Origin: Callorhinchus milii
Lineage: Eukaryota
Reading direction: 5' to 3'
NCBI RefSeq assembly: GCF_018977255.1
Contig: NW_024704742.1
Coordinates: 13,890,001-13,954,000 of the forward strand
Length of the DNA: 64,000 nucleotides
Part shown: piece after piece, positions 1 to 62,430 of the stretch
Layout: each line of letters begins with the position of its first letter
Position numbering within the stretch: position 1 is the first letter of the stretch
Program-made: the position numbers and the translations under genes
Notes under the pieces: model-generated
What the model was told of the DNA's origin: nothing
The model's input: only the letters and a program-made list of their open reading frames with translations
The model's database searches: none

Positions 1-24
1 CTGTTTCCCCCTCTCAACATGCCT

Positions 25-131
25 CAGTTCTGATGAAGGATCGTGGACCTGAAATGTTGACTCACTTTCTTTTCTCCATGGATGCTGCCTGACCTGCTGA
101 GCTTTCCCAGCTCTCTCTGTTTCTGTTCCAG
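25..131 (+). mobile_element. Penelope-like terminal repeat fragment with minimal hammerhead ribozyme motif (copy 1)
   Basis: agtt-CTGATGA-agg..cct-GAAA-tg-tt-gact, followed by 'ctccatggatgctgcctgacctgctgag'. Homologous to 12526-12629. Confidence 0.7.
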
Positions 132-184
132 CTTTACAGTTCTCTGGGACACAACTTGGAATGCTCCACAACAATTATTATTCC

Positions 185-4802: not shown

Positions 4803-5362
4803 TCATAGAACCATAGAAAACTACAACACAGTAGGAGGCCTTTCGACCCATTGTATTATTGTCAGTGTTTGCTCCTCCAACGAAGCCATCTATCCTAATC
4901 CCAATTCCCCATACCCTCTGATACTCTTCCTCCATATGTGGCTATTTGATTACCTTTTAAATGTGTCCAATAATAATAATAATAATCCTTGCATTTGATA
5001 TAGCGCTTTTCACGTCGGGAGGACGTCCCAAAGCGTTTCGCAGAACACACTGTAAAGTGAATTGACTGTATATGTGTGGGCGAACGCGGCAGCCAATTGC
5101 GCACAGCAATGTCCCACAAACAGTCGTAGATTGAAAATGACCAATTTATTATTGTTTTGGTTTTGGAGGGATTATTATTAGGCGTGTAGAGTAAGGAAAC
5201 TTGCCCAAGGTTTCACCCTGCCTGGAATTGAACTCAGGTCCCTCGCTTGCAAAGCGAGTGCTCTAACCACTGAGCTACAGGACTCCAATCAACTCTTATC
5301 CAACAACCACCACTGGCTGTTCATTCCATACTTTGATAATCCTTTGGGAGAAAGACTACCTT
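4803..5362 (-). mobile_element. CR1 3' end interrupted by a SINE
   Basis: catagaaccatagaa is the reverse complement of the ttctatg terminal repeat; CR1-like sequence resumes after 5288. Confidence 0.65.
4969..5287 (-). mobile_element. Full-length young tRNA(Ala)-derived Deu-SINE
   Basis: Reverse complement has A box TAGCTCAGTGG, B box GAGTTCAATTCC, Deu body, L2-like tail and (ATT)n. Confidence 0.95.
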
Positions 5363-5614: not shown

Positions 5615-6242
5615 ACAGTGATTGTGTATTTGTAAGTAAATGCTGCAGCCAAATGTTTCTCAGTAATGAGATGAATGACCAATTTATTTGGGAAGATTAT
5701 TGGCCAGGACATTGAGAAACTCCCTTCTCTTTTTGAATAGCATCATGTGTTCTTTAAAATCCACCTGGACCTTGGTTTAACATTTCATTCATAGGATAGT
5801 TGATGTCAGCCCGGCTCAGTTGTAGCACTCTTGCTTCTAAATCAGAAGTTTGTGGTGTAAAGCATCACATTGGAATAGTGAATTCAGAGTCTAGGGTGAT
5901 AGTCCAATACAGTGCCATGGGATATACTTTGATAAGATATTAAACCAAGTCTGCTTGTTCAGGTGAACATTAAATATCCCATGTTACTATTCGAAAAAAG
6001 AAGCAAGTTTCTATTAGTGGTCTGGCCAACCCCAGCTAAAATTGGTCATTCACTTCATGCTGTTTGTGAGTTGTTACTGTGCCCAAATTAACTCAATTTT
6101 TTGTCTGCAAATTGCACTTTATGGACCCTGCACTGCAGACGAGCCAGCCTAAATTTCAAGCTCAAAATACCTAATATGGGACTTGGACCTACAGCCTCAG
6201 ACCTAGAGGTAAGTGTGTTACCAACTGAGACAAACTGACATA
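5615..6242. mobile_element. Old SacSINE1-like Deu-SINE cluster: a + copy (~5802-6085) between the body and head of a - copy
   Basis: + head gtcagcccggctcagttgtagcactcttgc; - body at 5615-5800; - head ttaccaactgagacaaactgaca at ~6220-6240. Confidence 0.7.
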
Positions 6243-7759: not shown

Positions 7760-8188
7760 TTATTCCAGTCCTTGATCAAACTCCATTGGTTCCCTGTCAT
7801 AGAGCGGATCAATTTCAAGATCCTAACTCTTGTATTTAATTCCTTCATGCCCTGGCACCACTGTATCTCTCCAGCTTGATCTCTCCCTACACTACTGTCT
7901 CACACGACTGGCTCCGGCCTCCTCCTTGTCCCCCGGACCCTCCGCCCCTCTATCGCCGGCCGTGCTTTCAATCACGACGCCCCAAAGCTGTGGAACTCTC
8001 TCCCTCAATCCCTTCGCCTTGCCCCCTCTCCCCATTTTTAGGTCGCGCTTGAAGATCTTCCTCTTTAAGTGTGCCTATGATCAACTTTCTCCTCCCCCTG
8101 TGTCGGCATCAGGTTCCACCACTATTAAGCGCTCAAGGATGCTGGACTGCGTGAAGCGCGCTGTGTAACTGCAAGTTGTTGTTGTTGT
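7760..8188 (+). mobile_element. L2 3' fragment
   Basis: ctccattggttccct (LHWFP), gatcaatttcaagatcct, and a gttgttgttg tail. Confidence 0.85.
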
Positions 8189-8474: not shown

Positions 8475-9753
8475 ACCCTTCCTGACCAAAGTTTTAGAAT
8501 GTGTCGTTGCAAATCAACTTTACTCACACCTCTCCCTCCACTCCCTACTCGAACCCTTCCAGTTTGGCTTTCACCCTGCCCACAGCACAGAGACAGCGCT
8601 CGTCATAGTAACAAATGACATGCTTTCTCTCTGTGAGCAGGGCTCCCTCTGCCTCCTCGTTCTCCTGAACCTCTCCACCACGTTTGACACAGTTGATCAC
8701 ACTATCCTCCTCTACTGCCTCTCCTCCCTAATCCACCTCAGTGGGCCTCCACTCGCATAGTTCAAGTCCTACTTAACAAACCGCCAACAATATATCTTGG
8801 CAAATGGTTTGCGGATGACACCCAAATCTACTTCTCCTCCTCCAGCTGTGACTCCCAGTCTGCTGATGTCTGGTTAGCGTGTTTGACAGACATCAAGGCC
8901 TGGATGAGCACAAATTTCTTGCCGCGTAATGTCGGCAAGATGGAAGCCATACTCTTTGGCACCTGTCAATATCTTCTTTCCTGCGGGTCTGAACTCCTCA
9001 ACCTCCCCGAGCTCTCCCTCAGACTCACCGAACTTGTGCGCAACTTAGGCATTCAGTTCAATCCCCAGCTTTCCTTTCTCCCCCACATCTGTTCCTGACC
9101 AGGATTGCTTTTTCCACCTCTGCCACATTGCTTACCTCTGTCTGTACCTCACACCCACAGCAGCCAAAACCCTCGTCCATGCCTTTGTCACTTTCCGGTT
9201 GGAAGTAGACTATTCTAATCCCCTCTTTGCTGGTCTCCCCAGCTCCACTCTACACAAAATCCAATGAATTCAAAACTTTGCCGCCTGGATTCTCACCCGC
9301 ACAAGCACTGTACCCCCATCAGAACAGTCTTAGCCAGGCTCCACTGGTTCCCAATCACCGAACGGATCAATTTCAAGATACTCTCACTCATTTTTAAATC
9401 CCTTCATGTCCTCGCACTTCCATACTTATCTGACCTGCTTACCCCTCTCCACCACCCGCTGCCTCCGCTCACCTGGCTGGCTTTGTCCCTCGTGCTCGTG
9501 CCTTCTGCTCCCACCATCGGTGGCTGTGCCTTCAATCACTCACCCGAAAGCTCTGGAACTCTCTTTCTAAATCTCTCTCTCTTGCCTCTCCTTCCACCTT
9601 CAACTCTCACCTAAAGACGCTTCTTTTTGATCGTGCTTACGGTCACCTCCCCTCTCCCTCTCCCTCTGGATTGTTGTCAGACTCCACCACTGTAAAGCAT
9701 TCCAGGGTGTTTCCCTGTGTGAAGGCACTATATAAACACAAGTTGTTGTTGTT
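8475..9753 (+). mobile_element. L2 LINE with decayed RT core through to the 3' end
   Basis: PFLTKVLECVVANQL..PFQFGFHPAHSTETAL..FDTVDH; ADDTQIY at ~8811; VRNLGI; LARLHWFP; (TTG)n tail. Contains stops, frameshifts and an internal deletion. Confidence 0.95.
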
Positions 9754-10164
9754 GACACACTGCCTTTTAAATTTCCTTTGAGTGATATTCGCTTGTTATT
9801 GAATTTGCATCTCAATTTGGGATTGTTTTCGTTGGTTATAACGCAATATCTGTGATTGTATGTCTTGCTTTGATATTTGAAGGTTTTCTTATTGGATTTT
9901 CATGCCTTTTGCTTCCTGTTCAGGATTTATATTGAGGTAATCAATGAGACTGGTTGTTTCTATACGAGTTAGAAATAGTTGTCTCTAACTTATTTCAATC
10001 TTGTTTTGGAGGTTGGTGGACATCTGTTGTTGCTACTCTTGCTAATAAGATCTATTATGTTCCATGTGTACAGCAGAAATTGCAGATGTCCTTCTTTAGG
10101 CAATTAAGAACTAATGAGAAGGAATCATTGTTAAATGGATAAATAACCACAAATGCGTTTGTGT

Positions 10165-10930
10165 ATCAGACTGGCTTAGTTGTTGCAATCTTACCTCTGA
10201 TTCAGATGGTTGTGGGTTCAAACCCCATGTGGTGATTTGGAATTCATATAGTTTAGACTAAAGCTTCAATGCAATGCTGGGGGATGGAGGGCAGTGTCAG
10301 AAGAGATGAGATGTTAAATTGAGGTTTTGTCTGCCTTGTTCAGGTGGATGTTATAGATCCCTGACAGATCGTGGAGTCCTGTAGCTCAGTGGTTAGAGCA
10401 CTCGCTTTGCAAGCGAGAGACCTGAGTTCAATTCCAGGCAGGGCGAAACCTTGGGCAAGTTTTCTTACCCACACAGAGCCTAATAATAATCCCTCCAAAA
10501 CCAAAAACAATAATAAATTGGTCATTTTCAATCTACGACTGTTTGTGGGACATTGCTGCCGCGTTCGCCCACAAATATACAGTCAATTCACTTTATAGTG
10601 TGTTCTGTGAAGCGCTTTGGGATATCCTCCCGACGTGAAAAGCGCTATATCAAATGCAAGGATTATTATTATTATTATCCCACAGCACTATTCTGAAAAT
10701 AAGAAGAGATTTTGTGCCTGTGTCCTCGCTAACAATCCTCAATTGTGCCTATTCCAATATTACTAGGTAATATAAATAAAACTGGTAATTTCACTTCATG
10801 GCTGTTTGTGGAATATTGATATATGCAAATTGGCTACTGCATTTGCCTACAAAATATATAGTTTAAAGTATATAATGTTAAGCTTTTTGAGACATCCTCA
10901 TGTTGTGAAATGTGTAAAGATTATTATTGT
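10165..10930 (+). mobile_element. Old SacSINE1-like Deu-SINE interrupted by a young SINE
   Basis: Head ggttgtgggttcaaacccca; gttcaggtggatgttatagatccc before the insert, cactattc after it; Deu motif at 10800-10850. Confidence 0.75.
10371..10678 (+). mobile_element. Young tRNA(Ala)-derived Deu-SINE with a small Deu-domain deletion
   Basis: Near-identical to the 17755 copy, but cattgctgccgcg replaces cattgctgtgcgcaattggctgccgcg. Confidence 0.95.
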
Positions 10931-12344
10931 TAAATATTATTCACTAATCTTCAACTGCATTCCAGACATAAGATTGGATGACCATAGTTATTAGAATTTC
11001 TGATGAGGTAACAACTGCCAAGAAACATTTCTGAGTGGAATTATGGAGAGGACAATATAAAACAATGAAAAAAACATTCAACAGACGAGGAAAGCAAGCT
11101 CTTGACACTGATGCTTTGGGAATGGCACATGAAGTAAAATGCCTGAACATCTCAGCAATTATACTGTGCCCTTCATGCAGGATAGCGCAGGATCTAGACC
11201 TAGTCTGCTAGTTCGGTCTGCTGCAAGCTTTACTTTGTGTAACAGACAGCAGGAGATGTGCTGCACATTCTGGATCAACATCATTAATGCAGAATACAAC
11301 TTTTCCAAACTGAAGCTCATTGAGACTTGCTGAGGTTTACAGCAAGGCAGGAAAGGCCATGTAGACTAGGTATAATCTCTGTTGAACATGAACTGATTAG
11401 TTCACTTCAGTACTATGGTCTCGTTGAGGCATTTATCGGTTAACATAAAAAACAAAAGACACCTGTTAAGTCAAGTGCTAACTAAAGGTAAATCAAAGGA
11501 ATCTTTTAAAATTTTTTAACATTCTGTGTGTTACAGTAGTGTCCTTTGTTGGGGGTAAAAAGTTTCGGAGGTAGCGAGGAAAAGGACAGGGTAGGTGGGG
11601 TACCCCATAATTAATGTCAATAGCAGTGCAATAATCCTATGGCAGACTTTACAGCATCTTATGAATGTAATCCTTAATGCCACATGGAAACATTCTTTTT
11701 CATAGATAAGAGAGTTGTGTTGAACGCTGGCTTGGCTGCATGTGAGAGAAAATCTTATCTCCACTGGAAAATGTGGAATTGAGGCATAACAATAGATTTG
11801 TTACAAACCAAGAAAATATGAAGCAAAACCTCCATATTTGGAGCCACAATTGTAAGTTCTATCATGTGCAGTTCCAATTACCATTGGAGACATTTGGGGT
11901 TTTGTTAAAAAAAGTTTTTTTGCAATTTATTTTCTGAATGCAGTGCTGCTTACTTGTCACTTTCATCAGATTCGTTTAAATTATTTTTGGTTAGCAATTT
12001 CTCCAGCACTGAACTTTAATTGTAAGACATTACGCAGTGGTCTCTGTCTGACACTCAGACTGGCAGTGAATGGCACACACCTCAGTTTATTTATATTTTG
12101 CATTAAGTGTGATTGTGCTGGAATACTGATCAACTCATTCAAGCTACAGATTCAATTTGCTGACATGGAATCAGTGATGCAAAAATAGGTTACAAGCAAA
12201 AAATTGCAGCAAACTGAAGTGAAGCACAAAAATGAGAGATGAACCACTGGACTGCTTAAATGGATCAAGAGCACAACATAATTTCAATATAGAGGATTTT
12301 TAAAAAGTAATGTTAATTGATTCATCCTCAATTAATTGGGATCA

Positions 12345-12772
12345 AGCCTCAAGGACCTTGAGCTCAAAGTCTAATCTGATACTTCAATGCAATGCTGGAA
12401 AGTGTTGTACTCCCAACCTTCAGTTGAGATGTTAAACTGAAGTTTTGTCTGCCTGTTAAAGATTCTATGGCATTATTTGAAAAGCTCTCCCAGTATCCTG
12501 GCCAACATATCCACATTCACTTCATTTGAGTTCTGATGAAAGGTCATCGACTTGAAACATTAACTCAGTTTCCTCTCTCCATAGATGGTACCTGACCAAC
12601 TGAGTGTTCCCAGCGACTTCTGTTTTTATTTCACTTCATGGCTGTTTGTGGAACATTGCTATGGTCAAATTAGCTGCCATGGTCACTTACAAAATATACA
12701 GTCACCACACTATTATAAATCCAACATCCATTATTGAGATGTTAAGCCTCTATATCAAATGCAAGAATTATT
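12345..12772 (+). mobile_element. Old Deu-SINE hosting a ribozyme-motif insertion
   Basis: gagatgttaaactga..cctggccaaca before the insert; ggctgtttgtggaacattgct and tatatcaaatgcaag tail after it. Confidence 0.75.
12526..12629 (+). mobile_element. Penelope-like terminal repeat fragment with minimal hammerhead motif (copy 2)
   Basis: tgagtt-CTGATGA-aag..ctt-GAAA-ca-tt-aactca; flanked by ttcacttcat at 12516-12525 and 12630-12639. Confidence 0.75.
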
Positions 12773-14099
12773 GACAATTGGTATTCTTCACAGGCTGGAA
12801 AGTCCTCAGGTGCATCAGACCCAACCATTGTGACAAAGTTATGTGGGTTACACTCTTAGCCAGACAATAACAGGGCAGAATTTTCTGCTGCATCAGACAT
12901 TAAATCGAGGTCCAATCTACCTGGTCAGTTGGATTTTAAAGATCCCATGGCACTATTTGGAAACAGAAGGGAGTTTCAAACTTATCCCAATTGCACATCC
13001 CAATTTCCCCCCACAAGAATTACATTTCAGTTGCTGCTATGCGATTTGCAATTTGCAGTGACAAAAAGTACAGGCAATCTTCGTTGTTATTGTTATTGCA
13101 GTCATTTATGTACTTATCATGTGCATAAAATGAGAATTCAGACATTAGGAGTACTCCAATGTTAAGGCTTGTTCTCAAATTCCAATGTCAGTTTCATGCA
13201 GTGATAAATGATTTTTTGCCACTGAACTAAAACACCAGTTGAGCTAATTATTCGGGGGGGATTCAATCAATGTAAGAGTTATGCAAAATATTACAATTAC
13301 TGTACTCCACCAGCACTGTATGTCTCACTTGGCTCATGCTTTAACAGCGTCAGGAAACAACAAAAATATTCAGTGTCTCTTTGTGTTACAGAGTTTACAA
13401 TAGAAAATGAATGAGCACCAACTACTGATGTATGTGACGGCTTCAAACAGTGATACTGATGGTTTTCTCCAACATTGTTGTACTCTGCAATATGTGTAAT
13501 GAGTCCTGTTTGCATTCCACTATATTTGTGTATTATTCTAAATGCGCACATTATAAATGGATGCAAATGCAACATTTATTTTGCTAAATAATTTCTCGGT
13601 GCAAATCCGACCATCATATGAATATTTTATGACAGAATGATCCATAGAGTAAAGAGCATAATGTATAACAAAACAATCAAGAAACTCCAACATAGGAATC
13701 CAATAAAATGAACAGCCAACAAGCTTGGGGGTTTAAATCCACACGTAATATGGTCTGAAAATTAGCATGGAATGGGAAAAACTACAGTGAATATAGATTT
13801 GAGGAAGATAAACTATGTAAAATACATTGCCCCTTTTTTAAAAACAAAATCTACATCAATGCAATTACATTCCTACTATAACTTTTGCGTTGATTTTTAT
13901 CTATAAATAGAAATAAACATATTAATCAATTTAGTAACATGGTAACAGTTTTAGACAAGAGTAGACAAATAATCCATCCCACCAACCAACCCAAATTTCC
14001 AAAACACACATTTTGGGCCAATTAAACCTGAACCCTTTTGATTTTCAGGAACCTTTCTAGTTTCTCTTAGAAACCATTTTATGGCTCTGGCAGCATCAA

Positions 14100-14820
14100 C
14101 CTCCATGGTTGCACACTACAACTCACCAAGCCAGTCAGGAACCTCGGTGCCTTGTTCGACACTCAACTGTCTTTCCTTCCCCATATCCAAGCCATGACCC
14201 GCTCTGCCTTCCCTCACCTCCGTAACATCGCCCGACTCTGTCACTACCTCACCCCTCAGGCCGCTGAAACTCTCGTTCATGCCTTCATCACCTCCAGGCT
14301 CATCGGCCTTCCCAACTCCTCCCTCCACAGGCTGCAGAACTCTGCACCAAATGCTGTGACCCCATCGCCCCCATTCTCGCCCGACTCCATTGGCTCCCTA
14401 TCCTTCAGAGGATCCAGTTCAAGATCCTGGTCCTCATCTACAAAGCCTTCCATGGCCTCGCCCCACCCTACCTCTGTGACCTCCTACCCCCCTACTAACC
14501 CGCCCACTCCCTCCGCTCAGCCGGCTCCGGCCTGCTCCACGTCCCCTGCCGCACCCGCCCCACCATTGGGTGGAAAGCCTTCAGCCACTCTGCCCCCAAC
14601 TTCTGGAATTCCATCACCCAATCACTCCCCCTCACCACCTCCTTAGCCTCCTTCAAGTCCCGCCTCAAGACCCTCCACTTCGACCATGCCATCGGCCAAC
14701 CTCTTCCCCTCCTCTCTCTTCTCCCCCCCTGACCGCAGCTCGGGTCTGAAATACTGTACACTGTCCAGCGCCTTGGGACATGAAAGGTGCTATACAAATG
14801 TAACCTTGTTGTTGTTGTTT
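14100..14820 (+). mobile_element. L2 3' fragment
   Basis: FDTQLSFLPHI..HLRNIARLCHYLTPQAAETLVHAFITSRL; (TTG)n tail. Confidence 0.93.
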
Positions 14821-15351
14821 ATAGGAGTAAAATGTGCTATGTTTCTTGTTTCTTAACACATTCCCAATGCTAATTAACATAAAGAACAAGTTAGAGAACA
14901 CTACAAAATTGTTTCTTAACTAATTAGTGTGGGATAAAGTCCACTGACTTACCTCACCATTGAGTGTGTGGTGCGGGGGCATAAGTGAGATAAACGAAAG
15001 AACTTTACACTAACCTTATTAGTTAAGGAAGAAATTTAGCTTAAAGTGGTGAGGAGCCTCGGGGTCTTGTTTAAACCCCTCCCTCTCTTTCAAGCCCACA
15101 TCCAGGCTCTCACTTTCTCTTTATCATCCTCACCCTCTTCAGCCAACATCCCACCAGCTCAGATGCCAGTAGCGTAAAGTGCTTTGAGATGTCCTCCCAA
15201 CAAAAGAGGCTCTATATTATATTGTAGTGCAAACCTTGTCTTAATTAACACAAGGAAGGCCTCAAGGAATACCCGCAAATTTTACCCTTGAGTTCCTTGT
15301 TCCTGTTCCTGTGATACTGAAACAATTCTCCTACATTTTCTATTCCTAGAT

Positions 15352-17754: not shown

Positions 17755-18074
17755 GTGGAGTCCTGTAGCTCAGTGGTTAGAGCACTCGCTTTGCAAGCGA
17801 GAGACCTGAGTTCAATTCCAGACAGGGCGAAACCTTGGGCAAGTTTCCTTACTCTACACGCCTAATAATAATCCCTCCAAATCCAAAAACAATAATAAAT
17901 TGGTCATTTTCAATCTACGACTGTTTGTGCGACATTGCTGTGCGCAATTGGCTGCCGCGTTCGCCCACAAATATACAGTCAATTCACTTTACAGTGTGTT
18001 CTGTGAAGCGCTTTGGGACGTCCTCCTGACGTGAAAAGCGCTATATCAAATGCAAGGATTATTATTATTATTAT
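17755..18074 (+). mobile_element. Full-length young tRNA(Ala)-derived Deu-SINE
   Basis: A and B boxes, anticodon-like arm CTCGC-TTTGCAA-GCGAG, Deu domain, L2-like 3' stem-loop, (ATT)n. Confidence 0.95.
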
Positions 18075-31234: not shown

Positions 31235-31838
31235 CTCCTTTTGCTTCCCGTCCTCTCTGCTGCCTTTGACACTGTGGACCACTCTATCACCCTCCACCTC
31301 ACCGAGCCAGTCAGGAACCTAGGTGTCTTGTTTAACCCTCAGCTGTCCTTTCTCTTCCACACTCATACATGCCTTCATTACAACCAGGCTTGACTATGCC
31401 ATTGCCTTGCTTGATGGCCTTCCCAATTCTTCCCTTCACAAGCTGCAGATCATCTAGAACTCTGCAGCTCATGTCCTCTCTCACACCAGACTCCGTGACC
31501 CCATCACACCCACCCTTGCCCGGTTCCACTGGCTCCCCATCCCTCAGAGGATCAAGTTCAACATTTTTGTCCTCACCTTTGAGGTCCTCCATGGCCTTGC
31601 ACCCTCCTACCTCTCCAACCTGCTAACCCATTAACAACCTGTCCACTCCCTCCGCTCAGCAGGATCCGGCCTGCTCCATGTCTCCCGCCTGATCCACCCC
31701 ACCTTGGCGGTCGGGCCTTCAACCTCTCTGTCCCTATGCTCTGGAACTCCATCCCACATTACCTTGTGTATCAATACTGGGATATTCTCCCAACATGAAA
31801 AGCGCTTTATAAATGTAATTTTGTATTATATTGTATTG
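31235..31838 (+). mobile_element. L2 fragment with internal deletions
   Basis: LSAAFDTVDH joined directly to VRNLGV; HAFITTRLDY; HWLP; 3' stem-loop tail. Confidence 0.9.
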
Positions 31839-33734: not shown

Positions 33735-34575
33735 GCAAGGCTCTATTGCTAACACAGTTGAGTTTAGATATGCCAGACTCATATATAATGTATTGTGCTC
33801 TGGTCAGGCTGCACCTAGAGTACTGCATATGGTTCTGGTTACTGTGACATAAGGGGGCTGCCTTGAACCTTGAGGCAGTGCAGATGAGAGCAATGAGTTA
33901 TGAGCATCGATTGGACAAGCTGGGGCTCTACAGTTCTGAGAATTCAGATTGGACCTCATAAAAGTGTATAAAAGTTTAAATGGGATTGAAAATAAACCCA
34001 GAACAATATTTTAGGATGCATCAACAGAGGAACAAGAGGACATAGGTGTAAAGTTGTGGAGTCCTGTAGCTCAGTGGTTAGAGCACTCGCTTTGCAAGTG
34101 AGAGACCTGAATTCAATTCCAGGCAGGGCGAAACCTTGGGCAAGTTTCCTTTCTCCACACGCCTAATAATAATCCCTCCAAAAAACAAAACAATAATAAA
34201 CTGGTCATTTTCAATCCATGACTGTTTGTGGGACATTGCTGTGCACAATTGGCTGCCGTGTTCACCCACAAATATACAGTCAATTCACTTTACAGTATAT
34301 TCTGCGAAGTGCTTTGGGACATCTAGAAGACGTGAAAAGCGCTATATCAAAATGCAAGGATTATTATTAAGGACAATTTCAGGACCGATACCAGGATATT
34401 TTCTTTACTCAGAGAATAATTAATGATGAGAACATGTTGCCAAGGAGGGTGGTTGAGGCCAAGACGCTGGAATCAGCTTGATGCTGTGATGGGAGGACAG
34501 TAGGATGGATATGAAGAAAAAGATCATGTGGGATGAAGAGCCTTCTTCATCGAAACCAATTTTGCAATCTTGTGA
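33735..34575 (+). mobile_element. CR1 3' fragment interrupted by a SINE
   Basis: ctggtcaggctgcacctagagtactgc (LVRLHLEYC); resumes after the SINE with ttctttactcagaga. Confidence 0.75.
34056..34369 (+). mobile_element. Full-length young Deu-SINE ('tctagaaga' tail variant)
   Basis: Same head and body as the 17755 copy; tail gacatctagaagacgtgaaaagcgc. Confidence 0.95.
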
Positions 34576-38657: not shown

Positions 38658-39046
38658 GCCAGCCCTGCCCTGCCAGCCCTGCCCTGCCAGCCCTGCCCTG
38701 CCAGCCCTGCCCTGCCAGCCCTGGCCTGCCCTGCCCTGCCCTGGCCTGCCAGCCCTGCCCTGCCCTGGCCTGCCCTGCCCTGGCCTGCCCTGCCCTGGCC
38801 TGCCCTGCCCTGGCCTGCCAGCCCTGCCCTGCCAGCCCGCCCTGCCCCCTGCCAGCCCAGCCCTGCCAGCCCTGCCCTGCCAGCCCAGCCCTGCCAGCCC
38901 AGCCAGCCAGCCCAGCCCTGCCTGCCCTGCCAGCCCTGCCCGCCAGCCCAGCCCTGCCTGCCCTGCCAGCCCAGCCAGCCCAGCCCAGCCCTGCCTGCCC
39001 TGCCAGCCCTGCCCTGCCAGCCCAGCCCTGCCTGCCCTGCCAGCCC
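38658..39046. repeat. GC-rich complex tandem repeat of CCCTG/CCAG/CCTG/CCCAG units
   Basis: About 390 bp built almost entirely from 4-5 nt units. Confidence 0.97.
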
Positions 39047-42364: not shown

Positions 42365-43896
42365 AGCTACACTGTATATGGATGATGTCACCGTCTTTTA
42401 ACAGAGCCCAAATCAGCCTTGAGCCTGCTCGGCATTTGTGACCGGTTTGAATAAGCCTCGGGAGCGAAGGTCAACCACCAGAAACGAGGAGATGTATTTT
42501 GGAGACTGGAAAGAACGCAATCACATATCTTTTGCGGGGAAGCCAGACGACATCAAAGTCCTCGGCATCTGGTTCGGGGCTGCCGGGCTGCGCCATAAAA
42601 GCTGTGAGGAGTGTCTAGGCATAGTGAGGAAGATACTGGTGATGTGGTGCCAGCGCTTGCTGTCCATCACCAGGAAAAATCTGGCGATAAAGTGTGAGGC
42701 CCTCTCAGTGTTACTGTACGTGGCCCAGGTCTGGCCTTTGACCAGGAACAACGCGACTGCAGTCACCAGAGAGGTCTTCCAACTGATCTGGGGGTCCAAG
42801 ATGGATCGTGTCCGCAGAGACATGATGCACAAAACACCGGATAAGGGGGGTGGAAAGGGGTCCCTAACATAGCCCTGATCCTCATGGCCACCTTTCTGAG
42901 GCTGTGCCTGGAGCCCCTCTACGCCGGCAACAAATGCAGCTATGTGCTGGGTTTCTACCTGTACCTGGTGCTAAGAAGATGGGTCTGGCAGAACTGCCTC
43001 GTTACCGGCTCTGACCAGCAATCATCAGGACATGGTCTGGCTGGCGATAAAAGGGACCCCTTCCCTCTCCGGACTTTCACGCACGGCTGAGGTCTGGGCC
43101 AGTCAGTTTGTTGCCCTCGGGCTGGCTGCAGAGGCCAGGAGACCATGGACCACCTCTTCCTGGAGTGTTGTTTCGCAAAGGCGGTTTGGAAAAAAGATGG
43201 AATGAATTCTCTCACGGTTCGTCCCTGGGGACCCGCTGTCATGGCACTCGGTGCTGTACGGCCTCTTCCCAGGCACTCACAGGGAAACCCACAACGAGTG
43301 TGCCTGGAGGATCATAAACTCGGTAAAAGAGGCCCTTTGGCACTCCCAAAATCAGGTGCTCTTCTGGCAGAACGAGGGGACGGTGAGGGCCTGCCTCAGG
43401 CTCACGCACACCAGGATCAGGGACGAGATACTGAGGGACAAGTTGAAGTTCAGCTCAACCACGGCAAAGGCCAGATGGTGCCTGACCCTAGCAGGAGCCG
43501 CTCCGGCACCACCTGCTCAGGGCAGACCCACCGGGTAGCCCACAAGTGCACCCAAAACTGAATGAAGTAAGAGTACAGAGGACGCTCGAGATGTAACCGA
43601 AAATGTATGTATGGCAACCATGTGCTTGTACCTTCCGAAAGTGGCAAGTGCGCCTTATCAGGGTGTGTGCGGGTGGGCACATGGATGTGGTGTACACAGG
43701 GAGCCTCCCGACTGTGTTAAAGGGAACGTCCCAAAAAAACGTGCGCGCAGCCTATGTGTGGTGAAGGAATGCACCGTAAACAACGGAATGTTTTTTGTAT
43801 CGGGAGAAAAGGAAAAAAAATTAACACAGGATGTTGCATTTTGTTTTGGATTTCTGTTGTACTAAATATTATAAATAAATATATTTTCAAAAAAAA
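42365..43896 (+). mobile_element. Tx1/L1-clade LINE, 5'-truncated and decayed
   Basis: LYMDDVTVF; ASGAKVN; MYFGDW; KVLGIWF; DKGG; zinc knuckle CPRAGC..ETMDHLFLECCFAKAVW; AATAAA at 43874 and A-tail at 43889-43896. Confidence 0.92.
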
Positions 43897-51387: not shown

Positions 51388-52020
51388 AACAACAAAATTA
51401 CATCTGTAAAATACCTTTCACATTGGGAGAACATCCCAAGGCGTTAGACAGACTGAGTTACAGACCCGAGCTGGGAGTCGGGGAGGGTGGAGGGCAGGCG
51501 GGAAGCAGGGAGATCGAAAGCACGGTCAAAGAGGAGGGTCTTGAGATGGGTCTTGAAGTTGGCAAGGGAGGGGGCAAGGCAGAGGGACTGCAGGATAGAG
51601 TTCTAGAGGGTGGGGGCAGAGTGGTAGAAGGCCCGCCCGCCAATAATGGGGCGAGCGAGGCAGGGGACGTGAAGCAGGCTGCAGCCCGCTGAGTGGAGGG
51701 AGTGAGCAGGATGGTAGGGGGTTAGGACGTTGGAGTGGGAGGGGGGGAGCAAGATCATGGAGGGCTTTGAAGGTGAGGACCAGGATCTTGTATCCTCTGT
51801 GTGATGGGAAGCCAGTGGAGTTGGGCAAGGATATGGGGTGATAGGGTCACGGAGCCTAGTGCAGGAGATGATGCGAGCTGCAGAGTTCTGATTGATCTGT
51901 AGCCTATGGAGGAGGAGTTGGGGAGGCCAACAAGCAATGAGTTTGCATAGTCAAGCCTCGATGTAATGAAAGCATGTATGAGGGCTTTGGTGGCCTGCGA
52001 TGTGAGACAATGGCGGTGAT
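51388..52020 (-). mobile_element. L2 3' fragment
   Basis: Minus-strand translation LIHAFITSRLDYANSLLVGLP..LAQLHWLPI; KILVLTFKALH. Confidence 0.93.
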
Positions 52021-54101: not shown

Positions 54102-54392
54102 GGAGTTCTGTAGCTCAGTGGTTAGAGCACTCACCTCGCAAGCGAGAGACCTGGATTCGATTCCGGGCAAGTTTCCTTATTCCACATGCTTGATAATAAT
54201 CCCTCAAGAAAAAAATAATAAAATTGGTCACTTCAATCCACGACCGTTTGTGGGACACTGCTGTGCGCAATTGGCTGCCGCATTTCGCCCACAAATATAC
54301 AGTCAATTCACTTTACAGTATAATCTGTGATGCGCTTTGAGACGTCTAGAAGACGTGAAAAACACTATATCAAATGCAAGGATTATTATTAT
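54102..54392 (+). mobile_element. Deu-SINE variant with target-site duplication
   Basis: Head ggagttctgtagctcagtgg; agaaaaag at 54095-54102 and again at 54393-54400. Confidence 0.93.
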
Positions 54393-61985: not shown

Positions 61986-62430
61986 GATATAGCACTTTCA
62001 CGTCAGGAGGACTTATGTAGAGTGCAGAATGGATCAATGTCTGTGTATTTTGTAAGTGAACCCAGCTCGGGTTGGATTCGGTTGGGTGTGGGGGGGAATG
62101 AATGATGATGCGTTCAAAGAGAAAGATCAGTGAAATGGACCTTGAAGGAGCCGAGGGAAGGGGAGAGGGACTCCGGGACGGAGTTCCAGAGGACTGAGGC
62201 AGAAAAGCTGAAAGCCTCACCGCTGACGGTGAGGCCGGCAGGGCAAACCACACAGGCCAATGCCTGGCAAAACGGAAGGAGGGAACGGGCAGGTTGATAA
62301 GGTTTCAGAAGATAGAAGAGGTTGGATGAGGCAAGACCATGGAGAGATTTAAAAGTGAGGATGAGGATCTTTAACTCAATCCTCTGGGGGATGGGGAGCC
62401 AGTGGAGCCGGGCGATGATGGGGGTGACAC
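61986..62430 (-). mobile_element. L2 3' fragment
   Basis: gggagccagtggagccgggc (reverse complement of ARLHWLP); tail agcactttcacgtcaggaggac. Confidence 0.85.

Follow-up and report, generated by a model that had tools for sequence, protein, structure and literature searches.

Minimal type I hammerhead ribozymes are carried in the pseudo-LTRs (pLTRs) of metazoan Penelope-like elements (PLEs). Their consensus has an extra nucleotide after CUGANGA, a stem II of at least 5 bp, no loop III and palindromic positions 15.2-16.2 (Cervera and De la Pena 2014, PMC4209133). A G10.1-C11.1 pair closing stem II is a >80% consensus feature, and A-U closings occur among the published motifs (PMC4209133). Single minimal hammerheads gave no detectable cleavage and dimers cleave weakly (PMC4209133). 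Published PLE insertions can be 5'-truncated, carry or lack a 30-40-bp tail, and have inverted or partial-tandem partners (Craig et al. 2021, PMC8557442); duplication lengths of 8, 9 and 10 bp are on record, as are solo pLTRs (Arkhipova et al. 2013, PMC3846280). For an anole element, two internal positions of the RNA serve as starting points of reverse transcription and thereby set the tail (Frangieh et al. 2024, PMC11167929); the cut DNA is AT-rich, and the main substrate is unprocessed RNA (PMC11167929). No cartilaginous fish is among the organisms of Table S1 and Fig. S3 of PMC4209133, and our search of the literature found no paper that connects Penelope hammerheads with cartilaginous fishes. 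Retrozymes have been reported from one chondrichthyan in a 2026 preprint, which may cover the family described here (bioRxiv 10.64898/2026.07.22.740005). CmiSINE and SacSINE1-CM are, respectively, a younger tRNA-headed SINE and an old SINE, and the 3' part is common to both (Luchetti et al. 2017, PMC5499810).

The window analysed here is a 64-kb stretch of Callorhinchus milii DNA in which a short hammerhead-bearing fragment, the focal copy, interrupts an old SINE. Architecture and literature make its membership in the PLEs probable, and we think it likely that the insert arose by retro-copying of the 3' end (pseudo-LTR) of a PLE with an endonuclease, the copy being 5'-truncated and now dead. 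The insert and its host consist of the following parts.

12341-12525, + strand: left arm of the old host SINE, SacSINE1/Deu-type by architecture rather than by consensus comparison (profile model positions 7-169, E 2.4e-9)
12516-12525, + strand: left duplicated word TTCACTTCAT, from the sequence
12526-12633, + strand: inserted high-copy repeat fragment, read as a probable PLE 3' end (pseudo-LTR); its last 4 nt are common to the right duplicated word
12630-12639, + strand: right duplicated word TTCACTTCAT, from the sequence
12630-12711, + strand: right arm of the host SINE (profile model positions 162-241, E 2.7e-16)

The SINE profile represents seven other old SINE copies in the window. Both arms align to it as one SINE and overlap on the duplicated word, which bears out the insertion inside an old SINE proposed in the earlier, sequence-only reading. 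That reading had also given a duplication of 10 bp. Ten nucleotides are duplicated on the SINE side, but 12630-12633 are element letters as well. Because these positions belong to the element and the right word alike, the safe statement is a duplication of 6-10 nt with at most 4 nt of microhomology. The SINE copies near 6050 and 10790, cited as uninterrupted with the word present once, do carry a single word, but the copy near 10790 has a younger tRNA-SINE inserted upstream. In all, TTCACTTCAT is single in SINE copies at 6049, 10790 and 44313. The host repeat is likely a Deu-SINE of the SacSINE1 type, judging from its architecture. An exact 12-nt direct repeat is also present here (12424-12435 and 12734-12745, 310 bp apart), with one unit inside the left SINE arm and the other beyond the right SINE end.

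The younger SINE of the window is headed by a tRNA and has its 3' part in common with the old one. Five Rfam tRNA matches are the heads of this approximately 310-bp repeat, the copies of which are 76-97% alike, and it is the 3' half that is common to the old host SINE. One of these copies interrupts an old SINE copy at about 10240-10900.

5213-5284, - strand: young SINE tRNA head (Rfam tRNA)
10375-10446, + strand: young SINE tRNA head (Rfam tRNA)
17759-17830, + strand: young SINE tRNA head (Rfam tRNA)
34060-34131, + strand: young SINE tRNA head (Rfam tRNA)
54104-54175, + strand: young SINE tRNA head (Rfam tRNA)

Against its sister copies, the left SINE arm has gaps of 12, 10 and 13 nt. The gap of about 13 nt sits just before the duplicated word, 2-3 nt to the left of TTCACTTCAT; contigs of paralogous SINEs have 21-23 letters where the focal copy has 8 (two rows, 12507 to 12630). 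This gap is not accounted for by a PLE-end insertion and counts against it. Repair without any nuclease would explain it: a family fragment (cDNA or DNA) would have been patched into a double-strand break by microhomology-mediated repair, producing both the duplication and the 13-nt loss, and both the 4-nt microhomology at the right junction and the position of the gap next to the duplicated word suit such an event. However, the 12- and 10-nt gaps lie elsewhere in the same arm, far from the junction, and small losses are common in that arm, so the 13-nt loss may be independent of the insertion. The length of the duplication also fits PLE insertions (PMC3846280). We find a nuclease-free origin scarcely credible. 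For an insertion of a PLE end, the duplication of 6-10 nt and the solo end match the duplication lengths and solo pLTRs described for these elements.

A type I hammerhead layout is present as had been claimed, with stem I, CTGATGA and GAAA all found at 12527-12567 on the + strand.

12527-12567, + strand: whole type I minimal hammerhead, by comparison with the published consensus (PMC4209133, Fig. S3)
12527-12532 with 12562-12567, + strand: stem I, 6 Watson-Crick pairs
12533-12539, + strand: core CTGATGA (CUGAUGA), followed by unpaired A12540
12541-12545 with 12549-12553, + strand: stem II, 5 bp, pair probabilities 0.81-0.86
12554-12557, + strand: GAAA, followed by CA-TT at 12558-12561
12557-12560, + strand: stem III word, non-palindromic in the focal copy
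after 12561, + strand: predicted cut, from the hammerhead layout

A descriptor of the minimal hammerhead, with stems I and II of at least 4 bp each, matched only 12527-12567 on both strands of the 64-kb window, and none of 300 dinucleotide shuffles contained any match. The folding energy of 12526-12570 is by itself unremarkable (z -1.35). Rfam hammerhead models, a check that had been suggested earlier, gave no match at the gathering score in the window and none at E<=10 in 12300-12900. Across stems I and II, ten of the eleven pairs have probabilities of 0.80-0.87 and one has 0.40. The stem II register of 3 bp (aag/ctt) named in the sequence-only reading was rejected: its pair probability is 0.01 against 0.81-0.86 for the register with a bulged A12540 and 5 bp.

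The motif has the NUH triplet (A-T-T, 12559-12561), the core with its extra nucleotide (CTGATGA-A) and GAAA. At the palindromic positions 15.2-16.2, which would form stem III in a dimer, the focal copy has a C-A mismatch. The G10.1-C11.1 closing pair of stem II is replaced by A-U in the focal copy and by G-U in a second copy in the window (24-138). An A-U closing instead of the usual G-C counts against a PLE end, though A-U is found among published motifs. Overall, the motif fits the metazoan PLE minimal-hammerhead consensus, which supports the reading as a PLE end.

The second copy had gone unmentioned in the sequence-only reading and is more decayed.

24-138, ends approximate, left context cut by the window edge, + strand: second, more decayed copy of the insert (76% identity over 105 nt, 26-130)

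It shows 25 differences from the focal copy, 18 of them transitions, with the opposite CpG decay product in stem III and one broken pair in each stem. We found no clear duplication around it, its left side being cut by the window edge, and a profile of the two copies detected nothing better than E 0.9 as a third copy in the window. Between these two sequences (n=2) stem covariation amounts to no two-sided change, three one-sided changes and two broken cells of 22; the lack of a two-sided compensatory change would count against a PLE end, two sequences being few for judging covariation. The ATG within the hammerhead core opens a 19-codon frame at 12535-12594 (+) and 32-91 (+), which by eye has the same TGA stop in both copies.

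To place the insert in its family, contigs of four of the 24 listed public runs were compared with 12396-12755 at 80% likeness. Run X1 had 8,524 matched contigs, counting SINE and insert together. In the same run, summed contig depth, which is no copy number, was 8-13 in the unique flank, 72 at 12516-12527, 7,721 at 12528-12539 and up to 233,963 at 12600-12611. The repeat family is clearly present in great abundance. Depth in the 3' part of the insert is about 30 times that in the 5' part, as 5' truncation predicts, and divergent subfamilies of the hammerhead part that fail the 80% cut-off could give the same gradient. Pattern scans of metagenome contigs, viral contigs and prokaryote genomes for copies elsewhere returned no matches. 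The left junction is bridged without differences in runs X3 and X4, which is no evidence of fixation since contigs drop rare variants. Run X10 is only guessed to be RNA, and the unique flanks are not covered by it. As for an empty allele, no removal of the insert alone is among the 15 of 72 joints listed. Skips from 12507 to 12630 were considered as such an allele and rejected; they are paralogous SINE copies with other letters between.

Seven listed positions of the focal copy depart from the majority letters of the family, and at all seven the second window copy agrees with the majority. A change of 12552 T>C (93-95% of summed depth in 4/4 runs) restores a G-C pair and makes stem II all Watson-Crick, while 12559 A>G (54-68% in 4/4 runs) turns the stem III word into a palindrome. 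The other CpG decay product, 12558 C>T, has 9-12% of summed depth and is found in the second copy. No alternative letter at 5% or more is listed at the core positions, in a contig set biased towards sequences like the focal copy. Because the majority letters restore both the stem II pair and the stem III palindrome, the family ancestor would have had a dimer-competent motif, a feature lost in the focal copy. The focal copy is unlikely to be an efficient ribozyme because its stem III word is not the palindrome found in most contigs of the family.

The sequence-only reading had proposed that the short unit moved alone, as a non-autonomous element or as a heavily truncated Penelope insertion, and had looked to the ends of further copies to settle whether the unit is fixed. 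A retro-inserted unit with a Penelope-type minimal hammerhead agrees with what we see. On the 3' side, a fixed end does not: the family extends past 12633. Behind this position, contigs have a loose end with a single shared consensus (227, 233, 222 and 108 contigs in four runs, the counts of 222-233 being those per DNA-like run; 24 of 1128 rows listed). Agreement with the consensus of this continuation is 0.52-0.65 over up to 30 letters, and a scan of the window that allowed up to 3 mismatches found no match to the continuation motif. The second window copy also extends a few bases past the equivalent right end. The right end of the focal copy is thus not the family end. Because the family and the second copy both run on, a heavily truncated Penelope insertion is favored over a fixed-end element. 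The shared continuation is as expected of the optional 30-40-bp PLE tail.

The 3' part of the family also possibly reads like the splice acceptor of a PLE 5' intron.

12592-12633, + strand: putative 3'-splice-site-like stretch, from reading the sequence

CTGAC is found at 12592-12596, and 12612-12632 consist of 71% pyrimidines. A12633 is followed by G in the family, the first letter of the loose end, and not in the focal copy, which ends one base short of the family's AG; the second copy has CAG at 129-131. Words resembling branch points and acceptors are common in pyrimidine-rich DNA. We speculate that the family could be a separate, non-autonomous partner of PLEs: its RNA would begin precisely at stem I and serve as template without being cleaved, and its tail-less 3' end would coincide with a spliceosomal 3' splice site. 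Many copies would then derive by reverse transcription from the 3' portion of a hammerhead-bearing intron, whether excised or retained. PLEs do keep introns in their 5' regions (PMC4209133). We hold this partner to be quite improbable. If it were true, thousands of copies would map template ends in vivo and bear on why PLEs keep introns and hammerheads.

At the left end, the 5' starts of both window copies (2/2) are alike, at 12527-12529 and 24-26 on the 5' strand of stem I. Alike starts are not predicted by random truncation and count against a truncated PLE end. They would be expected if a PLE end had given rise to a short non-autonomous element of its own (~105-135 nt), transcribed from just upstream of stem I, mobilized in trans by PLE protein and ending at either of two 3' positions, with the tail or without it. 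The family is highly abundant, yet no ORF-bearing part was seen in the window, and PLE derivatives of that sort as well as trans mobilization via pLTR sequence are described (PMC8557442, PMC3846280). However, the right end of the focal copy is not shared by the family, and the first hammerhead bin reaches only about 1/30 of the peak summed depth. No site with many contig starts or ends is listed, though contigs show ends poorly, and a reverse transcriptase stalling at stem I would presumably cluster 5' ends equally. We judge such a dedicated element unlikely and retain the truncated PLE end.

The focal copy starts 35 nt upstream of the predicted cut and includes the whole hammerhead. Its RNA template was most likely uncleaved, because a cleaved linear template would give a copy starting at 12562. 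There is no upstream loose end among the 24 of 1128 rows listed, and neither a depth step nor a pile-up of contig ends was seen at the predicted cut, though contigs show such features poorly. Opposite-strand joints (2 among 15 of 72 rows listed) and back-stepping joints (2 among 12 of 89 rows listed) are present in few contigs each. In single contigs these joints resemble the inverted and partial-tandem units of PLEs, and the focal locus has no inverted or partial-tandem partner.

Back-stepping joints in single contigs would also suit a monomer offspring of a non-LTR retrozyme. In that scheme, the hammerheads of a tandem repeat release a small circular RNA, which is then reverse-transcribed and integrated. 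Retrozymes with dispersed monomers, related to pLTRs, have been reported from vertebrates, one chondrichthyan among them (bioRxiv 10.64898/2026.07.22.740005). Such a monomer should start at the cut site, but the focal copy starts upstream of it. A unit-length head-to-tail joint (~12633 back to ~12527) is missing from the 15 of 72 joints and the 12 of 89 inter-joint rows listed, and the unit is solo at the focal locus, with no tandem repeat over it. Retrozymes are moreover described with canonical hammerheads in 150-450-bp tandem units, and minimal variants are assigned to PLEs (PMC7229834). We rate a retrozyme origin as very unlikely.

Starting from the observed motif, duplication, split SINE, copy number, right-end extension and majority letters, we infer a link to a PLE ORF, the enzymology below and the inactivity of the copy. 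An element-encoded GIY-YIG nuclease would have made staggered nicks 6-10 nt apart at an AT-rich site in the old SINE. Reverse transcription would have been initiated at an internal position of the element RNA, some 70 nt downstream of the cut site and short of the family's further tail, perhaps aided by 4 nt of matching sequence. It may then have copied the hammerhead, still uncleaved, and ended at the 5' strand of stem I, with repair duplicating the target word. Later CpG-type decay could have broken the stem III palindrome and weakened stem II, so that the solo copy would cleave poorly or not at all. No reverse transcriptase or GIY-YIG Pfam family was found in the 19 of 68 long frames of the window that were scanned, a point against a PLE end. 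Two sub-threshold Pfam matches were found among these 19 frames, and neither lies near the insert.

The window holds several other repeats. A sub-threshold Pfam match to zf-RVT (43091-43561, + strand, E 0.0013) lies in a GC-richer stretch, which suggests a LINE remnant unrelated to the insert. A pyrimidine-skewed family of 300-700 bp, 67-77% alike and without a Pfam match in the frames scanned, probably represents LINE remnants as well. A GC-rich imperfect tandem repeat with periods 5, 9 and 14 (38658-39046) lies in a CpG-richer stretch and gives long open frames on both strands.

1071-1692, 7781-8187, 9333-9754, 14112-14821, 31288-31765, 51388-51982, 62111-62427: pyrimidine-skewed repeats

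The insert at 12526-12633 is ordinary, one worn copy of an abundant repeat, and the kind of element is already known. As decayed retroelement debris, the single locus matters little. The family, on the other hand, preserves on a large scale the points at which PLE reverse transcription began and ended. If its 5' ends really cluster at the hammerhead's upstream edge rather than at the cut site, this would give in vivo support to the uncleaved-RNA template seen in vitro. The role of PLE hammerheads could then be tested by counting ends in one genome.

Set beside the described systems, the two SINE classes of the window are like the SacSINE1-CM/CmiSINE pair in their shared 3' part, a likeness of architecture rather than of aligned consensus sequences. 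The short, non-coding insert resembles animal non-LTR retrozymes in its type I hammerhead, its dispersed monomers and its relation to pLTRs (PMC7229834, bioRxiv 10.64898/2026.07.22.740005). It differs from them in that it is not tandem, has a minimal rather than a canonical hammerhead and does not start at the cut site (PMC7229834). Compared with the minimal hammerheads in metazoan PLE pseudo-LTRs (PMC4209133), it differs in the A-U closing of stem II, the non-palindromic stem III and the lack of a linked ORF in the window frames scanned. It agrees with them in the type I layout, the extra nucleotide, the 5-bp stem II and the missing loop III (Cervera and De la Pena 2014, PMC4209133), and also in the stem III palindrome of the family majority and in mostly single, dispersed motifs in thousands (PMC4209133). 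Among endonuclease-positive PLEs, an optional 30-40-bp tail is known that is absent from the focal copy (PMC8557442, PMC11167929), as is an inverted neighbor, of which the focal locus has none (PMC8557442). Reverse transcription of the anole element starts, by subtraction, 85-92 nt past the cut, against 68-72 nt past the predicted cut for the focal 3' end (PMC11167929). Insertions of these endonuclease-positive PLEs are like the insert in their short duplication (8-10 bp), AT-rich target, 3' end downstream of the hammerhead and uncleaved template, the last of these most likely so for the focal copy (PMC3846280, PMC8557442, PMC11167929).
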